A DNA stretch of 42,397 bases from Verrucomicrobiota bacterium (GCA_040388725.1 JAZKBH010000206.1:6757-49153), one strand, 5' to 3'. Positions 19,117-42,224 are shown, counted from the stretch's first letter. Numbers and translations are program-made. The notes: generated by a model from the letters alone, not told the origin.

Positions 19117-19138
19117 CTATGGGGTGAAGACCCCATGG
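19117..19138. promoter_or_regulatory. palindromic variant of the GGGT/ACCCCAT element upstream of the signalling operon
   Basis: CTATGGGGT-GAAG-ACCCCATGG. Arms ATGGGGT/ACCCCAT are perfect. It lies 53 nt upstream of the CheB-like start. The spacer is 4 nt rather than 3. Confidence 0.5.
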
Positions 19139-24223: not shown

Positions 24224-24903
24224 AAAAAAATACATTACTCCTTGCCGATGATCATACGATGGTGCGCGAAGGCTTCCGAAAAATGCTGGAATTGGAAACC
24301 GATGTCGAAATTATCGGCGAGGCCAAAGATGGCCGCCAAGCCGTCGAGATGGCGATCAAACTTCGACCTGAGGTCGTCTTGATGGATATTGCGATGCCCC
24401 GCCTCAATGGATTGGAAGCGACCCGCCAACTTCTTAAAGCCCTCCCCAAGATCAAAATTCTCATTCTCTCCGCACACAGCGATGATGCTTACGTTCAAAG
24501 TGCCATCGAATCGGGAGCCGTCGGATTTCTATTAAAACAAACCTCCACCGCCGATGTCTGCAAAGCGATCCGGGAAGTACGCCAAGGGAAAACGTTTTTC
24601 TCTCCCTCGATTGTCAAACGACAAGCGCGACTCAAATCTCGAACAACCGTTCATACGGGCGTTTTTGATAAGAATAAAAAAGCGGCGACCTTGACCTCGC
24701 GCGAAATGGAAGTCCTTCAATTGATTGCTGAGGGAAAAGCAAATAAAGAGACCGCTGCCGAACTCGGCATTGGGATTAAAACCGTCGAAAAACATCGAGA
24801 ACATCTGATGGAGAAACTCGATATCCATGATACCGCCGGACTGACTCGCTATGCGATCAGTGCAGGAATCATTGAGAACAGCGTACAGATCACCATTCTT
24901 TAG
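24220..24903 (+). CDS. NarL/LuxR-family response regulator
   Basis: 227 aa. Receiver domain (LLADDH, VVLMDIAMPRLNG, ILILSAH) plus a LuxR-type HTH (LTSREMEVLQLIAEGKANKETAAELGIGIKTVEKHREHLMEKL). Confidence 0.92.
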   Translation: MKKNTLLLADDHTMVREGFRKMLELETDVEIIGEAKDGRQAVEMAIKLRPEVVLMDIAMPRLNGLEATRQLLKALPKIKILILSAHSDDAYVQSAIESGAVGFLLKQTSTADVCKAIREVRQGKTFFSPSIVKRQARLKSRTTVHTGVFDKNKKAATLTSREMEVLQLIAEGKANKETAAELGIGIKTVEKHREHLMEKLDIHDTAGLTRYAISAGIIENSVQITIL

Positions 24904-25135: not shown

Positions 25136-25174
25136 TGAATTTTTCGGAAGTTGTCCTGCATTCAACTTCTTCGA

Positions 25175-25193
25175 GTAGGGTTACACCCCATAG
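25175..25193 (+). promoter_or_regulatory. conserved 19-nt element, copy 1
   Basis: GTAGGGTTACACCCCATAG, 83 nt upstream of ATG 25276. Confidence 0.6.
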
Positions 25194-25275
25194 TCTCTTT
25201 TTGCCTCTTCTACTACTCTTTGACCATGAGGAACAAAATCTCCTCAGAAAACTCCCAATAAAAGTGAAACCTCTT

Positions 25276-25860
25276 ATGCCAAAAAAATCCGTATTCTGCG
25301 TCGCCAATACCCGGGAGCAAGCAGATCGAGTGGTCTTCCAACTAAAAGCCGCCAATTTCTGTCATGACGATATCTCCGTCATTTTTCTCGATAAGGAAAT
25401 TCCTCACCATTTTGTCCCTGAAAAAAATACTCCGATTCCCGAAGGAATCGTTGCTGGGGTGAGTTTAGGAGGAATTTCGGGAGGTCTCTTCGGTTGGATG
25501 ATTGGAATTGGAGCCTTGAGCATTCCCGTCGTCGATGCCTTCATTGTCGTCAGTCCTCTTTTGGAAGCATTCCGTGAAGCCGCCATGGGTGCAACGGTCG
25601 GAGGACTCATCGGGGGACTCATGGGAATGGTCATCCAGGCAATCGAAATCAAATGTAACAAGGAAAAGACCAAACTAAACCACATTCTCATTTCAGTTCA
25701 CACCGAATGCACCGATGAAATCTTTCGTGCTCGAAAAATCTTCACCCAGATAGGAACGAAGGACATTTGTACCAACGGAACATATTCGGCTTCCTTCGAG
25801 AACTCCAAAAACAATTCCTTCTCGAATCGCGGTAAAAATCTTGTCGCCATGCAGTCTTAA
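25276..25860 (+). CDS. general-stress-protein-like membrane protein (YflT/GSP17M-type N-domain plus glycine-zipper segment)
   Basis: I trimmed the 241-aa track ORF to Met48 (MPKKSVFCVANTREQADRVVFQLKAANFCHDDISVIF), because the upstream part covers a repeat arm and the 19-nt element. The middle is a Gly-zipper (GVSLGGISGGLFGWMIGIGAL...GATVGGLIGGLMGM). Confidence 0.6.
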   Translation: MPKKSVFCVANTREQADRVVFQLKAANFCHDDISVIFLDKEIPHHFVPEKNTPIPEGIVAGVSLGGISGGLFGWMIGIGALSIPVVDAFIVVSPLLEAFREAAMGATVGGLIGGLMGMVIQAIEIKCNKEKTKLNHILISVHTECTDEIFRARKIFTQIGTKDICTNGTYSASFENSKNNSFSNRGKNLVAMQS

Positions 25861-26009
25861 TCGCCTTTTTTCTAAGATCGATTGCTTAGAAAATTATGGG
25901 AGATGAATCCTGCTAAGGACCCCCTTTTTAAATCGCTCCCAAAGATGCTAAAATTCGACGTGGGTGATCTCTTTAAAAAATATTTTTGTACACCTCAAGG
26001 AGTTTTATC

Positions 26010-26162
26010 ATGGGTATTATTTTATTGATCGTTCTTGTTCTGATGATGATTGGAGCATTTCCCGCATGGCCTCATAGCCACGATTGGGGATATTACCCCA
26101 GCGGGGGACTCAGCATGATTTTAATCATTTTGGTTATTCTGATTTTGCTCGGAAAAATTTAA
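26010..26162 (+). CDS. DUF3309-like small membrane protein (50 aa)
   Basis: Below the ORF-track size cut-off. AAGGAG at 25997-26002, 7 nt before the ATG. MGIILLIVLVLMMIGAFPAWPHSHDWGYYPSGGLSMILIILVILILLGKI matches my memory of the DUF3309 pattern (two TM segments flanking WPYS..WGY.PSGG). Confidence 0.65.
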   Translation: MGIILLIVLVLMMIGAFPAWPHSHDWGYYPSGGLSMILIILVILILLGKI

Positions 26163-26313
26163 GCCATACGAATCTGTGGTGGCAGCTCAGGCGGCTCTTC
26201 TTGATCGCGCGCAATAGTCAAGCGATCCAGGGAAGGTATTCCCCCAATGTTTTTATGATCCTCCCCATCCTATTATCGATGCAAATACTGTATTTATTGA
26301 TGAACTCATCCTC

Positions 26314-27510
26314 ATGAAAACTTCCCAACCCTCTCTTTTGATTATGAATGGGGGTTCATCGAGCATTAAGTTCGCTCTCTATAAACACGGGGAACCTCTC
26401 ACACGAGAACTTCATGGAAAGATTGATCAGATCGGGAGCAAAGGAACAAGCCTGACCTTCAATGATCCCACCCAGAATCCGTCGGAGAAAAAAAGAATCG
26501 TTGTACCCGATCATTCATCGGCCGCGAATTTTCTAATTCACTGGCTTGAAGAACAGATCCACTTTGAATTCGTGAAGGCCGTGGGACATCGTCTCGTTCA
26601 CGGCTTACAACATACCGCTCCCGAAAGAGTCACTCAGAAACTTTTAGATGAACTCCGTGGGATGAGTCCGTATGATCCGGAACATCTTCCGAGCGAGATC
26701 GAGATGATCGATCTCTTTTGTCAACGCCATCCTCAACTTCCCCAAGTCGTCTGCTTTGACACGGCATTTCATCATGAGATGCCACGGATCGCTAAATGTC
26801 TGCCGATTCCAAGACGCTTTGAAGCGAAGGGAATTCAACGCTACGGGTTCCATGGTTTATCTTATTCTTTTCTGATGGAAGAACTCCTCCGCATCGGGGA
26901 TCCCACCGCGTCCCAAGGCCGCGTGATCCTCGCTCATCTGGGCAACGGAGCCAGTCTCGCCGCCATTCTGAATGGGAAAAGCATCGAGACGAGTATGGGC
27001 TTCACTCCCGCATCCGGATTGATGATGAGTACCCGTTCCGGTGATCTCGATCCCGGATTAATTCATTACTTGGCACAAACCGAACAAATGACTCCGACTC
27101 AATTTAATCACATGGTCAACCACGAGTCTGGTCTGCTCGGCATTTCCGAAACCAGTTCCGATATGCGGGATCTGCTCGCGATAGAAGCCCATGACCCACG
27201 CGCTGCAGAAGCGATCGCCTTATTTTGTTATCAGGTTAAAAAATGGATCGGCTCCTTCGCTGCTGTCTTGGGTGGATTGGATACCCTCGTCTTTTCCGGG
27301 GGAATTGGCGAAAACTCTCCCTCCATTCGCACGCGAATCTGCGCCGGGCTTGATTTTCTCGGCATCGAATTGGATGAAAATTTAAACCAAAAAAATTCAT
27401 CCCTAATTTCAAATGCCTCTGGACGCGTCACGGTTCGAGTGATTCCCACGGACGAAGAGCAAATGATTGCCCGATCCGTTAGTCGTCTGATGAGTAAAAA
27501 ATTGAAATAA
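26314..27510 (+). CDS. ackA: acetate kinase
   Basis: 398 aa with LIMNGGSSSIKFALY at the N-terminus, RYGFHGLSY, AHLGNGASL and VFSGGIGENS. Confidence 0.92.
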   Translation: MKTSQPSLLIMNGGSSSIKFALYKHGEPLTRELHGKIDQIGSKGTSLTFNDPTQNPSEKKRIVVPDHSSAANFLIHWLEEQIHFEFVKAVGHRLVHGLQHTAPERVTQKLLDELRGMSPYDPEHLPSEIEMIDLFCQRHPQLPQVVCFDTAFHHEMPRIAKCLPIPRRFEAKGIQRYGFHGLSYSFLMEELLRIGDPTASQGRVILAHLGNGASLAAILNGKSIETSMGFTPASGLMMSTRSGDLDPGLIHYLAQTEQMTPTQFNHMVNHESGLLGISETSSDMRDLLAIEAHDPRAAEAIALFCYQVKKWIGSFAAVLGGLDTLVFSGGIGENSPSIRTRICAGLDFLGIELDENLNQKNSSLISNASGRVTVRVIPTDEEQMIARSVSRLMSKKLK

Positions 27511-27789
27511 TACGAATCTCCATTTCTATAATGAGATTAGAAAAATCTTAAGAATAAACCAAACAAACCCCGATAAAATCGCATACGTGTCAAATGAAGT
27601 GAAATACAGGAGTTGCATCGATAACAGGATGGGGAGGATCATTGAAATTGAGTTCGAAAACTTGATAATTGAAAAACCCCCTCTGAATTTTTATCCACTT
27701 CATCCTGATATCGATGCTGAATTTTCCACCATCCTTTTCTCATTTATCCCTTTCATCGTTTTTAGATCCATGTAAATTTTCTCTATACC

Positions 27790-29496
27790 ATGACGGTCCC
27801 CTCTTCCCCTTCTCCAAATCCATTGGGTAAAATGGATCTATGGGCGATCGTACTTCTCTCTCTCCTTCTTTTTTTCATCTTCCTCATTACCCGTGAATGG
27901 ATGAGTCCCCTCCAACAAGTCCCTCTCATTCATCTCGAGGGACGATATCTCCCTCTCTATCTCCTTTTCAGTCTATCCCGCGGAATCATCGCCTATGGGA
28001 TCTCTTTTTTATTTACCATGATCTATGGATACGTGATGGCTCGTGTCACGGGAGCCGAACGCTTCATGCTCCCTCTCCTCGATATTCTTCAAAGCATCCC
28101 GGTGCTCGGTTTTCTTCCCGGATTCGTCCTCGGCCTCGTTTACCTTTTTCCCCAACAAAATATCGGTCTTGAAATCGCTTCCATTCTCATGATTTTCACC
28201 GGACAGGTCTGGAATATGACCTTTTCGTTTTATTCGTCGTTGAAATCCGTTCCCCCCGATTTGGTGGCCGTGGCCAGGCTCTCCAGACTCTCCTGGAGTG
28301 AACGATTCATTCGTCTCGATCTCTCTTATGCCACGACCGGACTCCTTTGGAATAGTATGATGTCGATGGCGGGAGGTTGGTTTTTCCTGATGGTGAGCGA
28401 AGCCTTTGTCCTCGGAGAACACGACTTTCGACTCCCCGGAATCGGTTCTTATATGAGCCTCGCCATCGAACGTGGCGACGGAACCGCCCAAGGGATGGGC
28501 GTTCTTGCTATGCTGGGAATGATTGTCTTTGTCGATCAAATCGTCTGGCGACCGTTGGTCAACTGGTCTCATAAATTTACCGATGAAGAAGCGACGGTGG
28601 GAGCCCATCCCTGGTTTTGGAAACAAATCACTCAAACGTGGACTTACTGGAAAATCAGTCGTTTATTCCTATTTTTATTCACTCCACTCCCACTCCTCTT
28701 CAATGGGATTCGCCATTGCACCTCCAAAATAAATTTTCCCGGCTATTTCAAACAAGGGTCCAAGCTCCTCCTCTATATCTTTATCGGCCTCCTTGTTCTC
28801 GGAGGAGCCGTGAAATATCTCCAACTCCTGATGACTCTCGAAAGCCAAGATTGGATCCATCTTCTGACCAGCACGGGAGCGACTTTTATCCGGGTGACCA
28901 TGGCCGTCCTGCTCGCCTCTCTCTGGACGATCCCGGTCGGGGTCATCATTGGTCGTCATCCCCGATGGGTTCATTTCCTTCAACCGATCATTCAGATGGC
29001 CGCGAGTTTTCCTGCTCCGATGATTTTCCCCGTGGTCGTGGGAGTCATGCTGGGGTCTGGCATTGGGCTGGGAATGAGTTCGGTGGTTCTGCTCCTCTTG
29101 GGTTCTCAATGGTATATTCTTTTTAATGTCATCGCCGGAAGCAGTTCCATTCCACGTGAACTCTGGGAAGTCTCTCAAATCACACGGCTCACTTTCTTCC
29201 AACGATGGAGGCATCTCATCTTACCCGCAATCTTCCCCAGCCTTCTGACCGGTTGGATAACGGCCATGGGCGGTGCCTGGAATGCCAGTATCGTCGCCGA
29301 ATATATGAAATATCACGGCGAGACTCTCCTGACGACGGGCCTTGGATCCACGATCAGCCAATCCACAGAACAGGGAAATTTTCACATCCTGGCCGCTGCC
29401 GTGGGAATCATGGCCATCACGGTCGTCAGCTTTAACCGGCTTGTCTGGAGACCTCTCAGTCATTACGCCCAAACCCGCTTCACAATGGAGACCTAA
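27790..29496 (+). CDS. ABC transporter permease, duplicated (two BPD-type domains; nitrate/sulfonate/taurine-like family)
   Basis: 568 aa, polytopic. Two internally similar halves, each with an EAA-like loop (VARLSRLSWSERFIRLDL / VSQITRLTFFQRWRHLIL). Confidence 0.85.
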   Translation: MTVPSSPSPNPLGKMDLWAIVLLSLLLFFIFLITREWMSPLQQVPLIHLEGRYLPLYLLFSLSRGIIAYGISFLFTMIYGYVMARVTGAERFMLPLLDILQSIPVLGFLPGFVLGLVYLFPQQNIGLEIASILMIFTGQVWNMTFSFYSSLKSVPPDLVAVARLSRLSWSERFIRLDLSYATTGLLWNSMMSMAGGWFFLMVSEAFVLGEHDFRLPGIGSYMSLAIERGDGTAQGMGVLAMLGMIVFVDQIVWRPLVNWSHKFTDEEATVGAHPWFWKQITQTWTYWKISRLFLFLFTPLPLLFNGIRHCTSKINFPGYFKQGSKLLLYIFIGLLVLGGAVKYLQLLMTLESQDWIHLLTSTGATFIRVTMAVLLASLWTIPVGVIIGRHPRWVHFLQPIIQMAASFPAPMIFPVVVGVMLGSGIGLGMSSVVLLLLGSQWYILFNVIAGSSSIPRELWEVSQITRLTFFQRWRHLILPAIFPSLLTGWITAMGGAWNASIVAEYMKYHGETLLTTGLGSTISQSTEQGNFHILAAAVGIMAITVVSFNRLVWRPLSHYAQTRFTMET

Positions 29497-29498
29497 AG

Positions 29499-30800
29499 AT
29501 GAGTTCATCTCTTTTGGAAATTAGAAACCTCTTTCAATCCTTCCCTAATCCCCATGGAGGAACAACGGAAGTCCTTCACGACATCAACCTTGAAATCCGC
29601 GAACATGAAGTCGTCGCCATCCTCGGCCCCTCCGGATGCGGCAAATCGACCCTCCTTCGTGCGATCATTGGATTTGAGCCTCCGACTTCCGGTCAAATTT
29701 TTTACCGTGGAAAACTTCAAATGGAATTAAATCCTTCCGCTGCATTAGTCTTTCAAAACTTTGCGCTCTTTCCTTGGTTGACGGTTCAACAAAATATAGA
29801 AATCGGTTTATCGCATCTATCGTTATCTGAAGAGATCCGATTAAAACGTGTTCGCCACGCCATTGATTTGGTCGGACTCGCGGGATCCGAAGAGGCTTAT
29901 CCGAAGGAACTTTCCGGTGGAATGAAACAACGTGTCGGCCTCGCTCGCGCCCTCGCCGTCGAACCCGAAGTTCTTTTCATGGATGAAGCGTTCAGTGCGC
30001 TGGATGTCCTCAGCAGCGAGACGCTTCGCAATGAAGTGGTCGATATCTACACAAGAAAAACATCGGCTGTGAACAGTATTCTCATGGTCACGCATAGTAT
30101 TAGTGAAGGCGTTTTTATGGCGACCAGGCTCGTGGTGATGGGCTCCCACCCTGGAACAATCCGAGCCGTTCTCGACAATCCCCTTCCTTATCCCCGGGAC
30201 GAACATCATCCTGACTTCCTCGCGTTGAATCAAAAGATTCACGAATTGATTACCCAGACAATGATGCCATCGAAGCCCATTTTTCCCACAGTCTCCGGAA
30301 GCACTAAACCTCATATCCAATCGCTTCCCATTGTCTCCCTCAGTCGTACCATCGGTCTTCTGGAAGTTTTAGAAAACGAGGGAACCATGGAACTTTTCGA
30401 ACTCAGTCGTCACGTGAATCTGGAACTGACCCAACTCCTCCTCGTCGTCAAGGGATCCGAACTTCTAAACTGGGTCACCACTCCCGACGGAGAGGTTGAA
30501 ATGACCGAAGCAGGCCGTCAGTTTTTGGAAGCCGATGTCTCCACTCGCAAAAAGCTTTTAAACGAAACCTTGAGACATCTTTATGTTTTCGATCTCGTGA
30601 TTCAGAAGCTTCGAGCATCGTCAAATCAGGAAGTCGATGAAAGCATTATTCTAAAAGAATTATCTATCCTATTTCCCCATGAACGTCCTCTCCGGATCAT
30701 GCGAACCATCATCTCCTGGGCCCGTTACGGCGAGCTCTTTAAATACAGCGCGACCAGAAAAGTTTTTCACGGACTTCAAGAAATACCCTCTCCCCTCTGA
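29499..30800 (+). CDS. ABC transporter ATP-binding protein with a C-terminal extension of about 170 aa (AAA-associated-domain type)
   Basis: 433 aa. Walker A GPSGCGKST, signature LSGGMKQRV, Walker B VLFMDEAFSALD, H-loop MVTHS. A non-ABC C-terminal domain follows (IGLLEVLENEGTMELFELS...). Confidence 0.9.
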   Translation: MSSSLLEIRNLFQSFPNPHGGTTEVLHDINLEIREHEVVAILGPSGCGKSTLLRAIIGFEPPTSGQIFYRGKLQMELNPSAALVFQNFALFPWLTVQQNIEIGLSHLSLSEEIRLKRVRHAIDLVGLAGSEEAYPKELSGGMKQRVGLARALAVEPEVLFMDEAFSALDVLSSETLRNEVVDIYTRKTSAVNSILMVTHSISEGVFMATRLVVMGSHPGTIRAVLDNPLPYPRDEHHPDFLALNQKIHELITQTMMPSKPIFPTVSGSTKPHIQSLPIVSLSRTIGLLEVLENEGTMELFELSRHVNLELTQLLLVVKGSELLNWVTTPDGEVEMTEAGRQFLEADVSTRKKLLNETLRHLYVFDLVIQKLRASSNQEVDESIILKELSILFPHERPLRIMRTIISWARYGELFKYSATRKVFHGLQEIPSPL

Positions 30801-30835
30801 TTTTTGCGCTCATAAACGTCACTCGAAGGAAAATG

Positions 30836-30878
30836 CAGAATTCACCGCAGAGTTTTCCTGCGTTGAATTCTGTTTTTT
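30836..30878 (+). terminator. strong intrinsic terminator
   Basis: CAGAATTCACCGCAG-AGTTTTC-CTGCGTTGAATTCTG (15-bp stem, 1 mismatch) followed by TTTTTT. Confidence 0.85.
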
Positions 30879-30920
30879 ATCAATTTCAAACCCATTTATT
30901 GAATAGGAAATTCTAAATAC

Positions 30921-30992
30921 GGGAGGGGCAAGTTTCCGAGGCCGTCGTTTTGAGATGTTACAGACTCGTGGCCACGGAACCTCGGCCCTCCC
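30921..30992 (+). repeat. structured repeat family E, copy 2
   Basis: GGGAGGGGCAAGTTTCCGAGGCCGTCGTTTTGAGATGTTACAGACTCGTGGCCACGGAACCTCGGCCCTCCC. The termini GGGAGGG/CCCTCCC and CCGAGG/CCTCGG pair. The loop and tail are shared with 15767-15847. Confidence 0.75.
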
Positions 30993-31064
30993 GTTTCGAT
31001 CCCAAAAAAGGATTTTAAGTTTTACCTCGTAAAACTATTCCTCATGCAAGATCTCGGTTAAATA

Positions 31065-31083
31065 GTCGGGTTTTACCCCATGT
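31065..31083 (+). promoter_or_regulatory. conserved 19-nt element, copy 2
   Basis: GTCGGGTTTTACCCCATGT, 83 nt upstream of ATG 31166 and 125 nt upstream of ATG 31208. Confidence 0.6.
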
Positions 31084-31207
31084 CAGTCGTTGGCGTTATT
31101 CTCTAAGTTTTATGAAGAGATGAATAACCGCATTTCCATACGCCTGACTTTTACCTCATTCAAAGATGCCGTCTCGCTCAACCAAAAATAATGAAAGGTC
31201 TTCTCTC

Positions 31208-31894
31208 ATGAATACAATGGATACGAAAAGTGATTCAGAAATTAAACATGACGTTCTTTCAGAACTTAAATACCAACCGAGCGTGAAAGAGACGGATATC
31301 GGCGTCCTTGTCAAAGAGGGAGCCGTAACTCTCACAGGATACGCGGAAAGCTACGAAGACAAAAGGCAGGTCGTCCTTGCGACAAGACGTATTGCAGGGG
31401 TCAAAGCCATCGCGGATGAGCTCCAAGTCCGAATTCCTCACACCTCACTCCGAACCGATGGAGAAATCGCCACGGCAGCGGTCAATCAACTCAATTGGTC
31501 CACCACCATTCCCACAGATGCGGTTCACGTAACAGTTCGAGAAGGTTATGTCACTCTCGAGGGTGAATTGGAATGGGGATATCAAAAAACAGCGGCTGAA
31601 AATGCCACCCACCATCTCATGGGAATTAAAGGCGTCGTCAACCTCATCACCATCAAACCGACACTCGACCCTGCAAATCTCGAATCGGCAATCCAAAAGG
31701 CCTTTGAAAGAAATGCACTTCTCGATGCGAAAAAAATTCATACCGAGATTTCAGAAAATACGGTGACCCTCCGTGGAAGGGTTCGGAATCATAGCGAGCT
31801 TGAAGAAGCGGAACGCGTCGCTTGGGCGGCTCCTGGTGTATTTCTTGTGAATAATCAACTTAAAGTCGATGGAGTGTGGAGTTTTAAGGATTGA
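31208..31894 (+). CDS. BON-domain protein (three BON domains, OsmY-like)
   Basis: Three repeats of the pattern D.EI...V...L......I.V.V..G.VTL.G.V.......A......GVK.V.N.L.V. The start is placed at Met15 (GAAAGG 11 nt upstream). The longest ORF starts at 31166. Confidence 0.85.
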   Translation: MNTMDTKSDSEIKHDVLSELKYQPSVKETDIGVLVKEGAVTLTGYAESYEDKRQVVLATRRIAGVKAIADELQVRIPHTSLRTDGEIATAAVNQLNWSTTIPTDAVHVTVREGYVTLEGELEWGYQKTAAENATHHLMGIKGVVNLITIKPTLDPANLESAIQKAFERNALLDAKKIHTEISENTVTLRGRVRNHSELEEAERVAWAAPGVFLVNNQLKVDGVWSFKD

Positions 31895-31952
31895 TCTCAG
31901 GATATTTTCCAAACAATCCATCGACAGAAAAACCCTCATACTCTCCCCTTCT

Positions 31953-32465
31953 ATGATCCCCTCCCTCCCTCATTCAAAATCGATTGGCATTGCCTCTGAT
32001 CATGGAGGCTATGAATTAAAAAAATATCTCATTCGAATGTTAAATGATGAGGGCTATGAAGTCGTTAATTTTGGAAACGATGAATTAAATTTAGAGGACG
32101 ATTATCCTGACTTTATTATCCCTCTCGCTCGCGCCGTCGCGGAGGGAAAGCCCAGCCGTGGGATTGCCATTTGTGGAAGTGGGGTCGGCGCATCGATTGT
32201 AGCGAATAAAATTCCGGGCATTCGTGCTGCTTTAATTCACGAAAAATATTCTGCTCATCAAGGCGTTGAAGACGACGATCTAAATATCATCTGTCTCGGC
32301 GGCCTTGTCGTCAGCCATCCATTCGCCTGGATCTTGGTTGAAATATTTCTCAAAGCACAATTCAGTAAAGCCCCTCGACATCAACGTCGCGTGAATAAAA
32401 TTTTAGCCCTTGAAAATACACACTCCGATTTCGTTTCTGAGACATCGTCTCTGATCTCGAATTGA
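31953..32465 (+). CDS. rpiB: ribose-5-phosphate isomerase B (RpiB/LacA/LacB family)
   Basis: SIGIASDHGGYELK, GIAICGSGVGASIVANKIPGIRAA, DDLNIICLGG. I trimmed to Met29 because the track ORF start overlaps the BON gene. Confidence 0.88.
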   Translation: MIPSLPHSKSIGIASDHGGYELKKYLIRMLNDEGYEVVNFGNDELNLEDDYPDFIIPLARAVAEGKPSRGIAICGSGVGASIVANKIPGIRAALIHEKYSAHQGVEDDDLNIICLGGLVVSHPFAWILVEIFLKAQFSKAPRHQRRVNKILALENTHSDFVSETSSLISN

Positions 32466-32625
32466 ATAAAGGGAATCCTCGTGCTTCAAAAAATTGAAAT
32501 AGAAAATTCTCTACCTCTGCGTCTCTGCGGTGAAAATGGTATTTTGTCTGTTTTTTCTTCACTTGACGTTCCTGCGACCCGCGATCGCTCCCGCTAAATT
32601 CCTACTGCACGAAATGAGTTTAATG

Positions 32626-32644
32626 GTCGGGTTTAACCCCATAG
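32626..32644 (+). promoter_or_regulatory. conserved 19-nt element, copy 3
   Basis: GTCGGGTTTAACCCCATAG, 69 nt upstream of ATG 32713. Confidence 0.6.
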
Positions 32645-32712
32645 AAGCTTTGCAGTTCGGAGTTAATCTAGGCGATATGAAAGCCCATTTAATTTTCCCT
32701 CACTTTCGAAAA

Positions 32713-32967
32713 ATGCAGTCTCCTTCAAATAAAACGTCATATCGATTGGGTCCTTTCAAAATTATTTTGGGGCTCGCCCTGATTGCCACCTTTTACGGAT
32801 GCGTCGGTTGGGTCGATAACGGAGGAAGCTATAGCGGCGGTGTTATTGTCTCGGAGCCGTATTATTCTTTCTACGACGGCGGTTATGGCGGGGGATATGA
32901 ATATCGAAACTACAGTCATCGTGGATATGCAAGTCGTTCCCATTCTCACCAGGGTCGACATCGATGA
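32713..32967 (+). CDS. small Gly/Tyr/His-rich putative lipoprotein (84 aa)
   Basis: Track ORF trimmed to Met62. Signal-like LGPFKIILGLALIATFYG-C, then GGSYSGG...YDGGYGGGYEYRNYSHRGYASRSHSHQGRHR. Confidence 0.5.
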   Translation: MQSPSNKTSYRLGPFKIILGLALIATFYGCVGWVDNGGSYSGGVIVSEPYYSFYDGGYGGGYEYRNYSHRGYASRSHSHQGRHR

Positions 32968-33026
32968 AAAGATCAGCGATGCATCTCACGACACCTCCAC
33001 AAAAATAAAATAAGAAATCTCTATTT

Positions 33027-34031
33027 ATGAAATATTCCAAACCGCTGATCCATTTCACCCGCTTTTTGACTTTTACACTCCTCGTCTGTATCGAGGGAGC
33101 GTTGACCACAAATATTCAGGCTGCCACAACGCATCCCATTGATTCCAAACCGGAAATCCGAGAAAAATTATTTTCATCTCCCGATGAAGCGATCAAAGCC
33201 TTGAAGACTGCCGTGGAGAGCGACGATCAATCCGAACTACAAAAAATCTTCGGCCCAGAATTCCGGGAGCTCCTCACAGGCGACCGAGTGCAAGATGCGA
33301 ATAACATCCACAAGTTCGCCGATGCGATGAATCAAGGTTGTAAACAGGTCAAAGAAGGAAAAAATACCGTGGTACTTGAGCTTGGAAAGAACGAATGGCC
33401 GATGCCGATTCCACTCCTGAAATCCAATGGAAAATGGCATTTCGATACGACGGAGGGGAAAGAAGAAATCATCAATCGGCATATCGGAAAAGGGGAACTC
33501 TACGCCATCGGCGTTTGCCACGACTATGTCACCGCACAGAAGCAATATGCAAAAGAGATGAAGAAAGAGGGCAACGAAAAGGAGTACGCCCAGAAATTCA
33601 AAAGCACCCCCGGGAAAAGAGATGGACTTTACTGGCCCGCAACAAAAAGTGAGCCCGCCAGTCCTTTCGGACCTTTAGTCGCGGAAGCTCATGCGGAAGG
33701 TTATGTAAGTCATAAAGACAAAGGTCCACACCCCTTTCATGGCTATTATTTTAAAATTCTCACGCAACAAGGTTCCTCCACACCTGGTGGAAAAATGAAT
33801 TATCTGCATGAGGGCCATTTGATCGGGGGCTTCGCTTTAGTCGCCTATCCCGTGATTTGGGAGAAGTCGGGAATTATGACCTTTGTCGTCAATCAAGACG
33901 GAAAAGTCTTTCAGAAAGATTTGGGAGAAGAAACTCAGCGCATTGCAGGAGAGATGAAAGAATACAATCCCGACCCCTCATGGACGAGAGTGAAGGATAA
34001 GGGAATATGGAATGCGATTTTTGAGAAATAA
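33027..34031 (+). CDS. DUF2950-like secreted protein
   Basis: 334 aa with a signal peptide. PFHGYYFKILTQQGSSTPGGKMNYLHEGHLIGGFALVAYPVIWEKSGIMTFVVNQDGKVFQKDLG matches my recollection of the DUF2950 core. Confidence 0.7.
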   Translation: MKYSKPLIHFTRFLTFTLLVCIEGALTTNIQAATTHPIDSKPEIREKLFSSPDEAIKALKTAVESDDQSELQKIFGPEFRELLTGDRVQDANNIHKFADAMNQGCKQVKEGKNTVVLELGKNEWPMPIPLLKSNGKWHFDTTEGKEEIINRHIGKGELYAIGVCHDYVTAQKQYAKEMKKEGNEKEYAQKFKSTPGKRDGLYWPATKSEPASPFGPLVAEAHAEGYVSHKDKGPHPFHGYYFKILTQQGSSTPGGKMNYLHEGHLIGGFALVAYPVIWEKSGIMTFVVNQDGKVFQKDLGEETQRIAGEMKEYNPDPSWTRVKDKGIWNAIFEK

Positions 34032-34081
34032 TGCCATCCCATTTTACGAACGAAAATAAAAACCATACCAAACAAGTTTCT

Positions 34082-34399
34082 ATGAAAATTCAAATCAACA
34101 CCGATCATCATATCAAAGCCCACGAGAAAACACTCCATCAAGCGGAAGACCTCGTGAAAAATACTTTAGGGCATCTCTCTGAACACATCACCCGTGTAGA
34201 GGTCCACCTCAGTGATGAAAATGGGAAAAAAGCGGGAGATCACGACAAACGCTGCTTGATGGAAGCCCGCCTCGAAAAACATCAACCGATTGCCGTCACC
34301 CAGGAAGCGGGGACTCTGGACGACGCGCTTCAGGGGGCTGCCGAGAAGCTTAAGCATGCCCTTGAACATCTCCTCGGTCGGTTGAGTCAACATTCTTAA
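34082..34399 (+). CDS. HPF/RaiA-family ribosome-associated (hibernation) protein, short form
   Basis: MKIQINTDHHIKAHEKTL...ITRVEVHLSDENGKKAGDHDKRCLMEARLEKHQPIAVTQEA...AAEKLKHALE. The longest ORF starts at 34031 (TAATG overlap with the upstream gene), so the start is ambiguous. Confidence 0.7.
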   Translation: MKIQINTDHHIKAHEKTLHQAEDLVKNTLGHLSEHITRVEVHLSDENGKKAGDHDKRCLMEARLEKHQPIAVTQEAGTLDDALQGAAEKLKHALEHLLGRLSQHS

Positions 34400-34414
34400 A
34401 CGTGCATGAGAACT

Positions 34415-34480
34415 GGAGGGGCAGTGGCCCACTGCCTTCCCCGTCTTCTGAGGCACAGAGCCTGTGCCCCTCCATTTTTT
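34415..34480 (+). terminator. compound hairpin plus T-tract (intrinsic terminator after the HPF gene)
   Basis: Outer stem GGAGGGGCA...TGCCCCTCC, with inner hairpins GGCAGTGG-C-CCACTGCC and GGCACAG-AGC-CTGTGCC, then TTTTTT (34475-34480). Confidence 0.75.
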
Positions 34481-34540
34481 ATCACCCTTTGGGTCTATGA
34501 CTTTGCAGATAAAACCAATTCTAATGAAGAATATGGATTT

Positions 34541-34576
34541 AAAACTCTGTGCCTCTGCCTCTCTGTGGTGAAACGG
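34541..34576. repeat. repeat family B copy (CACAGAG-type) in the phosphoketolase leader
   Basis: AAAACTCTGTGCCTCTGCCTCTCTGTGGTGAAACGG. Its reverse complement TTTCACCACAGAGAGGCAGAGGCACAGAG resembles 36981-37013. Confidence 0.7.
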
Positions 34577-34599
34577 TATTCTCTAAAACGTGTTCATTT

Positions 34600-36969
34600 A
34601 TGAAAACAAAAACACTCTCCCCCGAAGATCTAAATCAAATCGATGCCTACTGGCGTGCTGCCAATTATCTCTCGGTCGGGCAAATTTATCTTTACGATAA
34701 TCCCCTTCTCAAACGTCCCCTCAAACTCTCGGATGTGAAGCGTATGTTGCTGGGACATTGGGGAACGACTCCCGGTCAAAATTTTATATATGCGCATCTG
34801 AACCGGATCATCAAAAAATACGATCTCAATATGATCTATGTCTCCGGTCCCGGACATGGAGGCCCAGCGGTCGTGGCGAACACGTATCTCGAGGGAACTT
34901 ACAGCGAGGTCTACCCTCACATCTCCCAAGACGAAGTGGGTCTTCAAAAACTCTTCAAACAATTTTCATTTCCCGGAGGAATTCCGAGTCATGCCTCACC
35001 GGAATGCCCGGGATCGATTCACGAGGGAGGTGAACTCGGTTACTCTCTCAGTCATTCATTCGGAGCCGTCTTCGATAATCCGAATCTCATTGTGGCTTGT
35101 TGCGTCGGCGATGGAGAAGCGGAGACCGGACCTCTCGCCACCGCTTGGCATTCCAATAAATTTCTCAATCCCGCCACCGATGGCGCGGTGCTTCCGATCC
35201 TTCATCTCAACGGTTACAAGATCTCCAATCCCACCCTTCTCGCCCGCATTACCCATGAAGAATTGGATCAGTTGCTCCGGGGTTACGGCTGGATTCCTTA
35301 TTATGTCGAAGGCCATGACCCCGAACTCATGCATGAAGCGATGGCCTCGATGCTCGATCTGGTGGTGGAAGAGATTCAAAAAATTCAACAAGAAGCTCGT
35401 CGCCATGGCAATCATATCCGTCCACGATGGCCGATGATTGTCCTCGCTTCGCCTAAAGGATGGACAGGTCCGAAGCTCGTCGATGGATTACAGGTAGAAG
35501 GAACCTTCCGTTCGCATCAAGTTCCTCTTTCAGATCCCGCGACTCATTCTGAACATCTTCAGCAATTAGAAACGTGGCTTAAAAGTTATCGACCGGAAGA
35601 ACTTTTCAACGAACAAGGCCGCTTAAAACCGGAACTTGCCGAACTTGCCCCTCAAGGCGACCGACGTATGGGCGCAAATCCTCATGCCAATGGCGGTCTT
35701 CTCCTTCGTGATTTGAAGATGCCCAATTTTAAGGATTATGCCATCGATGTTCCCACACCCGGAGTGCAAGGGATCGGTGATACCCACGTCCTTGGTGTTT
35801 TTCTTCGCGATATCGCGATCCTGAATCAGGATGAGCGTAATTTTCGAATTTTCGGCCCAGATGAAACTCTCTCCAATGGCTTGGAAGCCTTATTTAAAGT
35901 GACGCAACGTCAATGGGAGGCACAGACTTTGCCAAACGACGAATTTCTTGCGCCCGCAGGTCGTGTCATGGAAATGCTCAGTGAGCACCAATGTGAGGGT
36001 TGGCTCGAAGGTTATCTTCTCACCGGAAGACATGGTCTTTTTAATTGCTACGAAGCCTTCATTCATATTGTCGATTCGATGTTCAACCAACATGCGAAAT
36101 GGTTGAAAGTCACCTTGCACATGCCGTGGCGGCGTAAGATCGCCTCGCTCAACTACCTTCTCGCTTCCCATGTCTGGCGTCAGGATCACAACGGATTCAC
36201 GCATCAAGATCCCGGATTCATCGATCACGTCGTGAACAAAAAAGCCGAAATCATCCGCGTTTATCTCCCCCCGGATGCGAACTCTCTCCTCTCTGTCATG
36301 GATCACTGCCTGCGCAGCCGACATTATGTGAATGTCGTGATCGCGGGCAAACATCCCGCTCCTCAATGGTTGACGATGGAAGCCGCGGCCAAACATTGCG
36401 CGGAGGGAGTCGGAATCTGGGACTGGGCCTGCAACGACCACGGCGAAGAACCCGATCTGGTCATGGCCTGTTGTGGCGATGTTCCAACCCTCGAAACTTT
36501 AGCGGCGGTCTCGATTCTCCGAGTCCATCTCCCCGGTCTCAAAATCCGGGTCGTCAATGTCGTGGATCTGATGAAGCTTCAACCCCAAAGCGAACATCCT
36601 CATGGACTCAGTGATCTCGATTTCGACAATCTCTTTACAAAAGACAAACCGATTGTCTTCGCCTTTCATGCTTATCCCGGGTTGATCCACCGTCTGACCT
36701 ATCGTCGAACCAATCACGACAATATTCACGTCCGGGGTTACAAAGAGGAAGGGACGATCACCACTCCTTTTGACATGACGGTGCTCAATGATCTCGATCG
36801 TTTCCACCTCGTCATGCTGGCCATCGATCTCATTCCCCGAACCGGAACCCAAGGAACATCCTTAAAACGGCGCCTCGAAGAAAAACTGATCGAACATAAA
36901 CAATACATCGATCAACAAGGCCAGGACATGCCCGAAATCCGAAACTGGAAATGGACTGCATCCATTTAA
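34600..36969 (+). CDS. xfp: phosphoketolase (xylulose-5-P/fructose-6-P phosphoketolase)
   Basis: 789 aa from [25 protein letters not shown] (the track ORF begins 17 codons earlier, inside repeat B1). [32 protein letters not shown] and the overall length are typical of XFP. Confidence 0.92.
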
Positions 36970-36980
36970 GATTCAGAAGG

Positions 36981-37378
36981 TTTTCACCACAGAGATAAAA
37001 CCGAGACACAGAGCTTAGGAGATTTCTATTTAAAAGACACAGGCTCTATTGAAATGATCCTATCAAAGTGATTGGAGGGGCAAAACCAATTTCTTAAAAG
37101 CGGAGCCTGAATAGTTTGGCGTGGGGAACGCAACCTCCGCGAGTCCAACGTGTGGGATCATCCCCGAATGATTCGCATTCAGGAAAACCTCATCGATTCT
37201 GGCATATCTCCCCTTCCTGTAGCCACTATCCCTTCGGAGATGCCAACATCCTCTCCCATGAAATGCTCATTCTATCATCACGAGATCGTCTAAAACCTTG
37301 GACTCGCAGCGCTCGTCCCTCCATATAAATCAAAGACTTTCCCATACTCTGTGTCTCGGTTTTTCTCTGTGGTAAAAA
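36981..37378. repeat. 398-bp non-coding element bounded by 32-33-bp family B inverted repeats
   Basis: TTTTCACCACAGAGATAAAACCGAGACACAGAG (36981-37013) versus the reverse complement of 37347-37378, TTTTTACCACAGAGAAAAACCGAGACACAGAG (1 mismatch plus 1 indel). The interior carries a half-copy of the 1328-1392 hairpin arm. Confidence 0.8.
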
Positions 37379-37420
37379 TGTTTTTCGGCTCTTTCTGTTG
37401 AAGTCGACCTGTATGTATCA

Positions 37421-37439
37421 GTCGGGTTTTACCCCATAG
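37421..37439 (+). promoter_or_regulatory. conserved 19-nt element, copy 4
   Basis: GTCGGGTTTTACCCCATAG, 16 nt upstream of ATG 37455 and 34 nt upstream of ATG 37473. Confidence 0.6.
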
Positions 37440-37454
37440 CATGAGTCCAGCTCC

Positions 37455-37904
37455 ATGCATTATCCTCATTCCATGAAGAACCCCACATCCGACCCTGTCA
37501 CAAAGTCTGCTGCCGGTTTATGGATTGATCACCGAAAAGCCGTCATCGTCATCCTCTCCGCGAATGGAGAAAAAACGACCGTCGTTCAATCCCAGGTCGA
37601 AAAGCAACCGGGACGTTATGAGGGAGTTCGTTCCACAACCCCATTTGAATCTCACAATGTTTCAGCCGATGATCGCCATCAAAGAAAGTTTACCAGTGAG
37701 CTCCGGGATTATTACAAAGAGGTCATCGATGTGATTGGCGAATCGCAATCCATTCTCCTCTTGGGTCCCGGCGAGGCCAAAGGCGAACTGAAAAAACGTC
37801 TCGAGCATGACCACCCTGGAAAACAAGTGATCGAGATCGAGACTTCCGATAAAATGACCGATCGGCAGATTGCAGCAAAAGTTCACGACCACTTCCATTT
37901 ATAG
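37455..37904 (+). CDS. small eRF1-domain-like / host-attachment-family-like protein (149 aa)
   Basis: LWIDHRKAVIVILS...DDRHQRKFTSELRDYYKEVIDVIGESQSILLLGPGEAKGELKKRL...ETSDKMTDRQIAAKV. The layout resembles Host_attach/baeRF-type proteins by eye. It is the first gene of the grpE operon. Confidence 0.45.
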   Translation: MHYPHSMKNPTSDPVTKSAAGLWIDHRKAVIVILSANGEKTTVVQSQVEKQPGRYEGVRSTTPFESHNVSADDRHQRKFTSELRDYYKEVIDVIGESQSILLLGPGEAKGELKKRLEHDHPGKQVIEIETSDKMTDRQIAAKVHDHFHL

Positions 37905-37915
37905 AAATTGATTTC

Positions 37916-38428
37916 GTGGACGAGCCCATGAATCCCGATCCTCTTCCTCCTGACATGGATTCCCCCATTCAAAATGAATTGATAGCCCTCAAGGAGAGCT
38001 ACCTTCGACTCGCAGCGGATTTCGATAATTTTAAAAAACGAACCCGCCGAGATTCCGAGCAACGAGCCTCAGAGGAAAAAGAATCCTTCATTCAAGATCT
38101 CCTCCCCGTTCTCGACAATCTCGAGCGTGCATTAGATTCCGGATCATCCGCCTCCTTTGAACAATTACATCAAGGGGTCGCCATGACGTTGCAGCAATTA
38201 TACCATTTGCTTCGTCAGCAGGGGATTCGAGTCGTCGATGATCTCGGTCGCCCTTTTGATCCCCATCGGCATGAAGCTATTTTTGTCCAGAACGACCCCC
38301 TTCACCCCGATCATACCATCCTCAAAGTCACTCAGCGTGGTTACTCTCGCGGAGACAAAGTTTTTCGTCCTTCCCAAGTCATTGTCAACGATCTGAACCA
38401 TTCCTCCCCGACATCCCATGCCTATTGA
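37916..38428 (+). CDS. grpE: nucleotide exchange factor GrpE
   Basis: [39 protein letters not shown] and [19 protein letters not shown] start at 37916, alternative ATG at 37928. Confidence 0.9.
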
Positions 38429-39386
38429 ATTCAAAGATTATTACGATGTTCTCGGACTCAGCCGCAATGCGAGCGACGAGGAGATTAAAAAAGCCTTTCG
38501 CAAACTGGCACGCCAATACCATCCCGACGTGGCTAAAAACAAAGCCACCGCCGAGGAAAAATTCAAGGCGATCAACGAAGCCCATGAAGTTCTGAGTGAT
38601 CCCGAAAAAAGAAAAAAATACGATGCGTTGGGAGAAAATTGGAACCATCCCGAACGACAGGCCTCTTCGTCACACGGTGGATTTAGAGGAAGTTCTGATG
38701 AAGCCTCCGAATTCCATTTTAATGGCACGGGCTTCAGTGATTTTTTTGAGCAATTCTTTGGGAATCACGGTCAACCCTCTGGAGATTTTGGCCGCACGTC
38801 TCACCGCCCAAATGGGGCACCCATCGCTCAGCATGGTCAGGATATCGAAGGGAACATTCTCGTAACTTTAGAAGAAATTCTACACGGTTCGACCCGTACG
38901 ATCCAATTGCAACATACGGATCCCAAGACTCGTCAATCCACACTGCAAACCCTACGCGTCAAGATTCCACCCGGGGTTCGCGAAGGACAACTGATTCGTC
39001 TCTCCGGGAAAGGAGAAGAAGGAATGGGAGGAGGAGATTCGGGCCATCTCTATTTGCGAGTCAAATTCGCACAACACCCCGACTATCGGATTAAAGGCAC
39101 TGATTTATATTACGATTTAGAACTCTCCCCCTGGGAAGCCGTCCTTGGTGCGACGATCCAAATTTCGACTTTAGACGGAATGGTTTCCTTAAAAGTTCCG
39201 TCAGGAACAATTTCAGAACGCCAATTCCGTTTGCGCGGCAAAGGCCTCCCCACAGGAAGCACTTCGAGGGGCGATTTTTATGCCATCACCTCCATTCAAG
39301 TTCCCTCACAAATCACCCCGGAAGAAAAAGTCCTCTGGGAATCGTTAGCTGAAAAATCGAAGTTTAATCCGAGGAAAATCTCATGA
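38418..39386 (+). CDS. cbpA: J-domain co-chaperone, CbpA type (no zinc-finger domain)
   Basis: 322 aa. KDYYDVLGL...YHPD J-domain, G/F-rich linker and two C-terminal beta domains. The protein contains no cysteine, so there is no CxxCxGxG. It overlaps grpE by 11 nt. Confidence 0.88.
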
Positions 39387-39721
39387 AAAAATTTAGCGAT
39401 CAAAAGTCTTCATCTCCGCTCGGCCTTGAAATATTTCAACCCCAACCCAACACGCTCTATAGTCTCGAAGTCACTGCGCATCTTGCCGGGGTTCCGCGTC
39501 GATCTGTTCTTCTCTACTGTCGCGCGGGCCTTGTCCACCCGCTCTTTCAACCTCCTCATGGAGTGATGGAGTTTACCGAAGAGGCCATTTATACCGTTCG
39601 AAAAATCGAGTATCTGCGGGCCAATCATACCATGGATCTCACCTGGTTCAAAATGATGATCGATTTACGTGACGAACTCGATCACTTACGTGCCGAAATC
39701 CGTTTTTTAAGGAATCGATAA
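39383..39721 (+). CDS. MerR-type HTH protein (CbpM / HspR-like chaperone-operon modulator)
   Basis: 112 aa. ATGA overlap with the J-protein gene. [26 protein letters not shown] (HTH) followed by a C-terminal coiled-coil [17 protein letters not shown]. Confidence 0.75.
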
Positions 39722-39744
39722 ATCCAATTTTCTATATTAGGAAT

Positions 39745-39895
39745 TTCTCGGGAGCGATCGCGGGTCGCGATCACGCAACCTCGCATGCCCAACGCCCTCT
39801 CAGAAAGCCTATCGATTGTGCAGGATAGAGTGATGATTTTTGAATGCGGTAATGATGATTCTTGGCGTGATCCCGACCCGCGTTCGCTCCCGAGA
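39745..39895. repeat. 151-nt element with 30-bp inverted-repeat arms and a 91-nt interior
   Basis: TTCTCGGGAGCGATCGCGGGTCGCGATCAC (39745-39774) versus the reverse complement of 39866-39895, TTCTCGGGAGCGAACGCGGGTCGGGATCAC. 28 of 30 match. Confidence 0.85.
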
Positions 39896-40001
39896 ATCTC
39901 TTTCACCTCGTGGGTGATTCGCTTTATAGATAGAGACCTAATGCATGAAATTGATTTATTGATAAATATTTATTTTCATCATCAAAAAGAACCTTTCAAT
40001 A

Positions 40002-40020
40002 GTAGGGTTACACCCCATCG
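40002..40020 (+). promoter_or_regulatory. conserved 19-nt element, copy 5
   Basis: GTAGGGTTACACCCCATCG, about 280 nt upstream of the ATPase ATG (40304) and 97 nt upstream of a 58-codon ORF (40117). Confidence 0.55.
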
Positions 40021-40303: not shown

Positions 40304-42184
40304 ATGGAAAAATCCCTTCCCTTAACAAAATATTCAAATTCTCTTTGGTTTAGAAAAACAACCATCATCGCTTCATTTGCACTCCTCTGCATTCTGATCC
40401 ATTTGCTCCTTCGCTTTGGATTTCAGACTCCTCCTCCGATCGATCATATTCCCCTTTGGATCACGCTCGCCCTGGGAGGATCGCCCCTTCTTTATGACCT
40501 CATCCGAAAACTCTTTAAACGGGAGTTTGGCTCCGATCTTTTAGGCGGGATCTCCATTGTTACTTCCATCGTCCTGGGTGAATACTTAGCCGGTTCCATC
40601 ATAGTCCTGATGCTCTCCGGAGGTGAAGCGTTAGAAAGTTATGCCTTAGCGAGTGCCTCTTCTGTTCTGGCTGCCCTCGCCAAGCGAATGCCCTCCATTG
40701 CCCATCGAAAAAAAGGGACTGAAATCGCCGATATCTCCCTGCAAGAAGTCGCTCTCGGAGATATCCTCGTCCTCTACCCTCATGATATCTGTCCCGTGGA
40801 TGGAGTCGTTAAAGAAGGACATGGATCCATGGACGAATCCTTTTTAACGGGCGAACCCTTTCAAATGACGAAGACCTCCGGTTCCGCTGTCATTTCCGGA
40901 GCGATTAACGGCGAATCCGCTTTAACCATTGAAACCACAAAACTTCCCGCCGACTCGCGTTATTCCAAAATCATGGAGGTCATGCGGGAGTCTGAAAGCA
41001 AACGCCCTCAGCTCCAAAGACTCGGTGATCGATTAGGCGCTTTTTATACGCCCCTCGCCCTCATCGTCGCTCTCAGTGCTTGGGGGATCAGTGGGGAATC
41101 GATCCGCTTTCTCGCCGTTTTAGTCATCGCTACCCCTTGTCCTCTCCTCCTCGCCATCCCCATTGCCATCATCGGATCGATCTCTCTCTGCGCCCGCCGC
41201 GCGATCATCATCAAAAGTCCTGTCGTTCTCGAGCAAATCTCGGGATGCCGAACCGCCATTTTTGATAAAACAGGAACACTCACTTACGGCGAACCGAAGC
41301 TCACCGATCAACTCGTCGCGCCTGACTTTCAACCGCACGAAATCCTCACCCTCGTTGCCAGCCTGGAACGATACTCCAAACACCCCCTTGCACGCGCCAT
41401 TCTGGCGGCAGCCCTTGAAGCCAAGATCACACTTCCCGAAGCCTCGGACGTCGGTGAAAAACCGGGTCAAGGATTGAAGGGAACCGTCTCGGGTCACCTG
41501 ATCCAAATCACGAGTCGAAACAAATTACTCTCTCAAAAGCTTACTCTAGCGAATCAACTCCCCCCGATCGCTGGAGGCCTTGAATGTGTTGTTCTTGTCG
41601 ATGATCGCTACGCCGCCACATTTCGTTTCCGTGATGCACCACGAGCCGAGAGTCGCTCTTTTGTGAGCCATCTCGGTCCTGCACACCAATTTAAAAAGAC
41701 CATGATCATCTCCGGCGATCGACAATCCGAGGTCCAATATCTCGCCGAACAAGTTGGCATTTCTGAAATTCATGCGGAAAAAAGCCCAGAGGAAAAACTC
41801 GCTCTTGTTCGACATGAAACCGAACTCACAAAAACACTCTATGTCGGCGACGGGATCAACGATGCTCCCGCGATGATGGCGGCCACCGTCGGAATCGCCA
41901 TCGGTCAAAACAGTGATGTCACCGCCGAAGCGGCGGGAGTCGTCATCATGGATAACTCCCTCAAAAAAGTCGACGAGTTCATGCACATCAGCCGTCGCAT
42001 GCGGATCATTGCTCTTCAAAGTGCCGTCGGAGGAATGGCCCTCAGCCTGATTGGAATGCTCTTCGCCGCCAGTGGCTTTTTAAGTCCTGTCCAAGGCGCC
42101 ATTATCCAGGAAATCATCGACGTTCTCGCCGTCCTCAACGCTCTCCGAGCCGCTTTCCCTCCAAAAATTATTCACGATCTCTAA
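40304..42184 (+). CDS. P1B-type heavy-metal-translocating P-type ATPase without an N-terminal metal-binding domain
   Basis: 626 aa. TGEP, the TM motif ATPCPL (TPC), FDKTGTLT, and [11 protein letters not shown]. No HMA (CxxC) domain and no C-terminal extension. Confidence 0.9.
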
Positions 42185-42224
42185 GAAAATTCTGCGAATC
42201 ACATTGGTCTCCTTCATCACTTTC

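Follow-up and report, generated by a model that had tools for sequence, protein, structure and literature searches.

The closest described counterpart of the system considered here is the DosR/DevR regulon, which includes hibernation-factor-like proteins, chaperones and a P-type ATPase, as does the gene set described below, and whose 20-bp box has the consensus TTSGGGACTWWAGTCCCSAA. General stress regulons elsewhere are run by the sigma factors RpoS, SigB and EcfG; for Verrucomicrobiota, Lentisphaerota, Kiritimatiellota or Planctomycetota we know of no defined general stress regulator. These phyla of the Planctomycetes–Verrucomicrobia–Chlamydiae (PVC) group are abundant in soil, peat, freshwater and gut and are mostly uncultured. 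We analysed a stretch of 42,397 nucleotides from the metagenome-assembled genome of a Verrucomicrobiota bacterium (GCA_040388725.1 JAZKBH010000206.1:6757-49153), called the window throughout, in which a 19-nt imperfect palindrome, here called the box, stands five times upstream of stress-type genes. The box proved to be an orientation-specific promoter element that keeps a fixed position relative to a housekeeping-type -10 further downstream; it is near-invariant across Verrucomicrobia, Lentisphaerae, Kiritimatiellae and Planctomycetes. Its candidate binder is a NarL/LuxR-family response regulator encoded in the same window.

In the DosR system, a SigA -10 of the form TANNNT is combined with a proximal site that lies 34 bp upstream of the start and overlaps the -35 region (PMC5360333). 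The layout predicted for our locus is much the same, with a GGG...CCC dyad whose promoter-proximal copy overlaps the -35 region and reaches to about 34 bp from the start, and a primary-sigma -10 TANNNT. Both systems pair a NarL/LuxR-family response regulator with a HisKA_3-type kinase, and both join an operon that is autoregulated, or here appears to be, to a dormancy or stress regulon. They differ in the gap between GGG and CCC, which is 5 nt here and 8 nt in the DosR box, and in the flanks; the regulator described here is nearer to VraR and NarL than to DevR, and its kinases carry PAS or RsbU_N domains where DosS and DosT carry haem-GAF domains. In addition, a CheB/CheR module is attached, and the hosts are PVC bacteria, not Actinobacteria. 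Because box spacing, the nearest relatives of the regulator and kinase domains all differ, the box system is not the DosR regulon. If our reading is true, it would be a second, independent design of the DosR kind, in which a NarL-family regulator drives dormancy genes from a site overlapping the -35 region.

Systems in which a response regulator has its box at a class II promoter are well known. The LuxR and TraR promoters of this class resemble the present one in the GerE-type helix-turn-helix (HTH) dimer, which is proposed here, in a dyad of about 18-20 bp standing in for the -35, and in its centre, near -42.5 for the lux box and about -43 here. LuxR and TraR boxes are, however, more symmetric and unrelated in sequence, and the proteins bind ligands and are not phosphorylated response regulators. 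The NarL heptamer sites (TACYYMT, arranged 7-2-7) belong to the same protein family, and the proximal half of our box, yACCCCAT, resembles TACCCAT with one extra C; the half-sites here nevertheless read GGGT...ACCC instead of ACCC...GGGT, and spacing and the fixed promoter position differ as well. With the SigB, RpoS and EcfG regulons the gene set behind the box shares part of its content (CsbD, YflT, OsmC, BON/OsmY, PRC-barrel and DUF3309 proteins), and the kinases of relatives carry RsbU_N; it differs in having what we take for an activator box before a housekeeping -10, not a sigma-specific pair of -35 and -10. By reading, the box has no sequence match to the consensus of CIRCE (TTAGCACTC-N9-GAGTGCTAA) or HAIR (CTTGAGT-N7-ACTCAAG), and neither the sigma-54 pattern GG-N10-GC nor the GGAAC/CGT pattern of extracytoplasmic function (ECF) type sigma factors is present at it. 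A literature search with variants of the core sequence gave unrelated matches only, and nothing relevant was found on a stress regulon, NarL, leaderless mRNAs or promoters of Verrucomicrobia or Planctomycetes. The box, its regulon, its breadth in the PVC group and its near-invariance appear to be undescribed; the original prediction had supposed as much of the regulon signal.

Five copies of the box in the window

The original prediction listed five co-oriented copies on the + strand, each upstream of a + strand unit, and none in the 19 kb of glycan genes. A scan of the window bore this out. The pattern GTMGGGTTWHACCCCAT has five exact matches, all on the + strand (25175, 31065, 32626, 37421 and 40002), every one of them precedes a + strand gene, and the first 19 kb is free of copies. 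The chance expectation for exact matches, estimated by dinucleotide-preserving shuffles of the window, whose G+C content is 48%, was 0.00. When three mismatches were tolerated, no extra copy was found in the window (0.43 expected), and a profile made from 211 related sites recovered just the five copies, with E-values from 2e-6 to 7e-4; the next-best match in the window was a variant palindrome at 19119-19136 (E 0.3). It had also been claimed that a copy lies upstream of every stress-type unit. This is true of the five units but not of ackA, the ABC transporter and xfp, which have no copy of their own, and mismatch and profile scans of the window found no degenerate sites ahead of these three genes.

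Promoter geometry

We compared 205 related sites drawn from public genomes and metagenomes; the broader consensus of the box is gGTAGGGTwAyACCCCATrGc. A hexamer TAnnnT begins at +39 from the box start in 104 of the 205 sites, with smaller numbers at +38 (15) and +40 (22), against a background of 0-5 per position, and no TAnnnT signal was seen in the opposite orientation of the same sites. When 142 sites were aligned on the box, the information outside it was limited to G at -1, C at +19 and T, A and T at +39, +40 and +44, the last three being present in 88, 107 and 108 sites, respectively. The hexamer begins 22 nt downstream of the 17-mer of the box, and the proposal that the CCCCAT tail is itself a -10 or spacer element had to be given up, as the -10 lies that much further downstream. 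The place of a -35 (+16 to +21) reads TAGCrn, unlike TTGACA, and a scan for two-hexamer sigma-70 promoters found no match at the five -10 positions of the window, nor was there an extended -10. A -35-like CTGCA or ATGCA upstream of the window boxes was considered and rejected; it stands anywhere from 7 to 17 nt away from the box, and the 142 sites hold no information upstream of -8.

ATG codons show a sharp peak at +51/+52 from the box start. Thirty-one ATGs at +50 to +52 are the first codons of open reading frames (ORFs) of at least 50 aa, and about 15% of the box promoters have an ATG opening such an ORF at the inferred start. This pile-up points to leaderless mRNAs, and the peak at +50 to +52 would pin the start of transcription about 7 nt past the -10, that is, about 51 nt from where the box begins. 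With the start so placed, the box would span about -51 to -33 and have its dyad, TAGGGT-N3-ACCCCA, centred near -43. The two halves of the dyad, TAGGGT and ACCCCA, pair at five of six positions. In a relaxed search allowing four mismatches all 59 sites had the same promoter-proximal ACCCCAT but differed in the distal GTAGGGT. Fixed position, single orientation, a housekeeping -10 and a poor or absent -35 hexamer, which are marks of a class II site overlapping the -35 region, were found, and the layout derived from the related sites fits all five copies in the window.

The strict orientation, the fixed distance to the -10 and the invariant proximal ACCCCATrG are also typical of sigma-dependent promoters, and stress regulons elsewhere are sigma-run, as mentioned above; the box could accordingly be an unusually long element of the -35 type, read without any activator by an alternative sigma factor, perhaps one with an accessory domain. 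The original prediction had allowed for such a factor, which we consider improbable. The -10 is of the housekeeping type TAnnnT, and the conserved block stops 20-22 nt before it and reaches back to -51, which is too long and too far upstream for region 4 alone if the geometry of the sigma-70 family holds here. Moreover, Sigma70_r2 was absent from the top-25 family lists of 300 ORFs of 150-300 aa in the motif loci, and the Sigma70_r4_2 matches fit a cross-matching of the GerE HTH, as in the one member shown.

A repressor operator, for the same regulator or for another protein, would overlap the -35 region just as the box does and would occlude it until stress; the heat-shock operators CIRCE and HAIR are known to be similarly well conserved across phyla. 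We regard this explanation as quite improbable, since promoters with no recognisable -35 hexamer or extended -10 should be weak without an activator and offer little to repress, and the fixed helical position is a better fit to activation.

It had been stated beforehand that scatter in both orientations and inside genes would reveal a generic repeat of the REP type. Among the related sites, the orientation of the site is that of the downstream gene, and only 12.6% of the sites lie deep within long open frames, a figure that is 68.7% for random positions; this outcome favours the finding. As a short imperfect palindrome met repeatedly between genes, the box does resemble a REP or MITE-like repeat, or a transcribed RNA element, and yet the evidence leaves such an origin next to no probability. 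The flanks of the five copies in the window could not be aligned with one another, and the box is therefore not part of a longer repeat; extended conserved flanks, occurrence in both orientations and a lack of relation to gene starts, by which REP and MITE sequences are recognised, were not seen. Being upstream of the inferred start, the box would not be transcribed. A scan of positions 24000-42397 against Rfam gave no match at E-values up to 1, so the box is not a known RNA motif.

Distribution of the box and the genes behind it

A collection with one representative genome per species (596 Gb) was scanned with the query GTMGGGTWWHACCCCATAG, which yielded at least 120 stretches, each cut to 8 kb only. 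Assuming equiprobable bases, about 26 chance matches were estimated for the whole collection. According to record titles, the matches listed include about 80 Verrucomicrobiota of several orders, 11 Lentisphaerae, 4 Kiritimatiellae, 5 Planctomycetota and 2 records of the 'PVC group', in all about 100 PVC-labelled stretches, together with 4 Acidobacteriota and a few contigs with doubtful labels. A further six matches are scattered; four of them look like chance because the downstream -10 is missing.

The labels of metagenome-assembled genomes (MAGs) may be wrong. Six stretches labelled Bifidobacteriaceae or Solirubrobacteraceae (L084, L086, L092, L118, L045 and L068) have bona fide boxes and Verrucomicrobia-like genes, and their bin labels look wrong. 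Two others, labelled Anaerolineae (L100) and Chloroflexota (L108), have the same box with the same flanks and a proper -10; in the former a single-domain response regulator lies behind the box, and in the latter tblastn with the regulator gave a partial match only. The range of the box may extend beyond the PVC group.

In one relative (L004), whose regulator is 77% identical to that of the window, seven copies of GTAGGGTWWYACCCCATAG were found within 20 kb of the regulator gene, on both strands, each oriented towards its own downstream gene. We also noticed two near-identical genes for 319-aa proteins in one stretch (L065, 304-1263 and 3664-4623), each behind a near-identical box promoter; the pair suggests that a regulon member was recently duplicated in tandem.

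The first genes downstream of 150 sites were enriched in BON (12 cases), DUF5670, ice-binding-like, PRC, OsmC, CsbD, DUF2934 and YflT proteins, and also in HisKA_3 or receiver proteins; Xfp was among them. Sites in other genomes repeatedly have genes for AckA, Xfp, DUF2950, CbpA and the ATPase nearby, and the box-linked stress-type genes further include those for DUF3309 and HPF proteins, chaperones and phosphoketolase/acetate kinase. Judged by these families, the gene set is of the general-stress or dormancy type, which supports the earlier view of a shared regulatory signal of stress-type units. With a near-invariant box of 19-21 nt and a fixed promoter geometry, the stress or dormancy regulon of any MAG from these phyla could be read out from sequence alone.

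The NarL-type two-component system as candidate regulator

Two proteins encoded in the window had been put forward as cognate regulators, a NarL/LuxR response regulator (24220-24903) and a MerR-type protein. When 996 ORFs from 120 motif-selected 8-kb stretches were clustered without bias, the family of HisKA_3 kinases ranked first, with 18 loci, and the NarL-type regulator second, with 14; these and the following counts of motif loci are among the matches listed. For a single-copy gene, we would expect about 0.2 occurrences in 120 such stretches. The next families were BON, PRC-barrel, YflT and a CheB-CheR-PAS fusion, and a tblastn comparison of the window proteins with the motif-selected stretches agreed with the clustering. 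The response regulator is therefore, together with its kinase, the candidate most enriched around the motif. The MerR-type protein fared poorly: it is a weak HspR/CbpM-like match, travels with cbpA and was present in only 4 of the 120 motif loci.

The reverse comparison used 80 metagenome loci (610 kb) picked solely because they encode a relative of the regulator. They contained 76 sites with at most two mismatches, in 41 of the 80 loci; in 14 of 65 loci a site lay within 700 nt past the stop codon of the regulator, and sites were often found there or ahead of the kinase operon. Regulator and box thus co-occur across genomes. In several relatives the box lies directly upstream of the signalling operon, and for this reason the system appears to regulate its own operon. 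The HTH of the regulator is almost invariant among orthologues of 55-80% identity, and its recognition helix KTVEKHR is unchanged in 14 orthologues. Its best matches in the Protein Data Bank (PDB) were VraR (1e-45) and NarL (3e-31), followed by DevR (3e-25).

Two variations of the signalling operon were seen in relatives (L050, 607-1740; L033, 3929-4669; L076, 3588-4397). The kinase carries an RsbU_N domain instead of PAS, and a kinase-like protein of 246-269 aa without an ATPase domain (RsbU_N and HisKA_3) heads the operon, right behind a box.

Several observations weigh against this assignment. In a relative with a complete 3.6-Mb genome and a 78%-identical regulator (L002, 8040-8070 and 10678-10880), no canonical box was found within 10 kb of the regulator, and only the degenerate ATAGGGTGAAACC stands ahead of the kinase operon. 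None of the 8-kb stretches labelled Planctomycetota or Acidobacteriota showed the regulator, and it is present in only about a tenth of the motif stretches. Clustering of a regulon near a regulator is suggestive and not proof. Finally, the dyad is imperfect (5/6) and strongly asymmetric, which is unusual for a simple homodimer operator.

The same geometry would also arise if a different protein bound the box, an orphan protein consisting of GerE only, a partner of a single-domain regulator or an unlinked regulator, and the two-component system were a mere member of the regulon. The enrichment described above could reflect such membership and not control, given that the kinase-regulator operon of relatives is itself headed by a box. 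An orphan GerE protein lies directly behind a box in L004 (11305-11937) and has relatives in L045, L070 and L092, and a single-domain receiver protein recurs in six loci. We nevertheless find a different binder unlikely. The recognition helix of the orphan protein differs, and no other DNA-binding family approaches the regulator in recurrence; the MerR-type protein, tied to cbpA as it is, would in addition act from a site in the spacer between -35 and -10, and that spacer is unconserved. As a universal binder the orphan GerE protein was rejected, since it is found in only four loci; it may be a second-tier regulator. Its N-terminus is a run of TRTEQAE-like repeats.

We put a probability of roughly 0.6 on the reading that the box is the activator half of a composite promoter and the putative docking site of the regulator 24220-24903 at a class II position; a dimeric HTH regulator, already suggested in the original prediction, is the best reading of the dyad. 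The phosphorylated NarL/GerE-type regulator, in partnership with the HisKA_3 kinase and the CheB/CheR module, would bind the box as a dimer and from there recruit RNA polymerase with the primary sigma factor, as DosR, LuxR and TraR do. The invariant proximal ACCCCAT would place the subunit that touches the polymerase, so that the box would always point towards its gene. Stress and dormancy genes, including the operon of the system itself, would be switched on in this way.

A wider proposal is more tentative, and we would give it slightly less than an even chance. It holds that the PVC group, and by record labels some Acidobacteriota and Chloroflexota, have a common, hitherto unrecognised general stress or dormancy response in which one highly conserved NarL-type regulator takes the part played elsewhere by the alternative sigma factors RpoS, SigB and EcfG, with RsbU_N- or PAS-HisKA_3 kinases and a CheB/CheR methylation module as inputs and with class II promoters, part of them leaderless, as outputs. 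The analysis supplies a specific candidate regulator with its sensory module, and predicted transcription starts, many of them leaderless.

The signalling operon and the box-headed units of the window

Gene families in the window were assigned with Pfam and NCBIfam, and all features given here are on the + strand. The signalling operon begins with a stand-alone CheB methylesterase (19191..19859), followed by a CheB-CheR-PAS_10 fusion protein (19911..22574), which has orthologues of 64-72% identity in seven motif-selected loci, by a cytoplasmic PAS-HisKA_3-HATPase sensor kinase (22599..23987), a member of the family most recurrent near the motif, and by the NarL/FixJ-type response regulator with its receiver and GerE HTH domains (24220..24903), the proposed box binder. 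The variant perfect palindrome already mentioned, TATGGGGTGAAGACCCCATGG (19117..19138), consists of two ACCCCAT halves with a 4-nt spacer and lies 55 nt upstream of the stand-alone cheB, at the head of the cheB-cheBR-kinase-regulator operon. A GAAAAT is found 23 nt downstream of it, at the would-be -10 position, and relatives have a canonical box with a GAnnnT hexamer at the matching position. The palindrome is a possible autoregulatory site.

Box 1 (GTAGGGTTACACCCCATAG, 25175..25193) is followed by the -10 TACTCT (25214-25219) and a predicted start near 25226. Behind it, unit 1 (25276..27510) encodes a glycine-zipper membrane stress protein (25276-25860), a DUF3309 protein (26010-26162) and ackA (26314-27510), which is possibly co-transcribed with them. 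The predicted start coincides with the ATG of an 11-codon mini-ORF (MRNKISSENSQ, 25226-25261) upstream of the real gene. The DUF3309 gene between the stress protein and ackA codes for 50 aa and was overlooked by ORF lists with a 60-aa floor. Box 2 (GTCGGGTTTTACCCCATGT, 31065..31083) has the -10 TAAGTT (31104-31109) and a predicted start near 31116, and unit 2 (31166..32465) comprises a triple-BON protein and RpiB.

For units 3 and 4 the start codons had been placed at 32713 and 37455; the ATGs at 32677 and 37473 are likely the right ones. Box 3 (GTCGGGTTTAACCCCATAG, 32626..32644) has the -10 TAATCT (32664-32669), and ATG 32677 is at box start +51; box 4 (GTCGGGTTTTACCCCATAG, 37421..37439) has the -10 TATCCT (37461-37466), and ATG 37473 is at box start +52. 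Both ATGs fall exactly on the predicted starts, and the two units are probably leaderless. Unit 3 (32677..34399) encodes a small Gly/Tyr-rich protein, a DUF2950 protein and an HPF-like protein. A terminator-like hairpin with a T-run (34452-34468) stands between the last of these genes and xfp, so that here xfp apparently forms a unit of its own that lacks a box. Two relatives (L006 and L057) are unlike the window in having a box directly upstream of xfp. Unit 4 (37473..39721) encodes a 143-aa protein without family match, GrpE, a CbpA/DnaJ-like protein and the HspR/CbpM-like MerR protein.

Box 5 (GTAGGGTTACACCCCATCG, 40002..40020) has the -10 TATCTT (40040-40045) and a predicted start near 40052, and unit 5 (40304..42184) is a P1B heavy-metal P-type ATPase with a leader of about 250 nt. 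A second half-site, CACCCCAT, is present at 40058-40065, right after the predicted start. The leader also holds a sigma-70-like TTGAAA-16-AAAAAT (40065-40092) and an unconserved-looking ORF of 58 aa (40117-40293).

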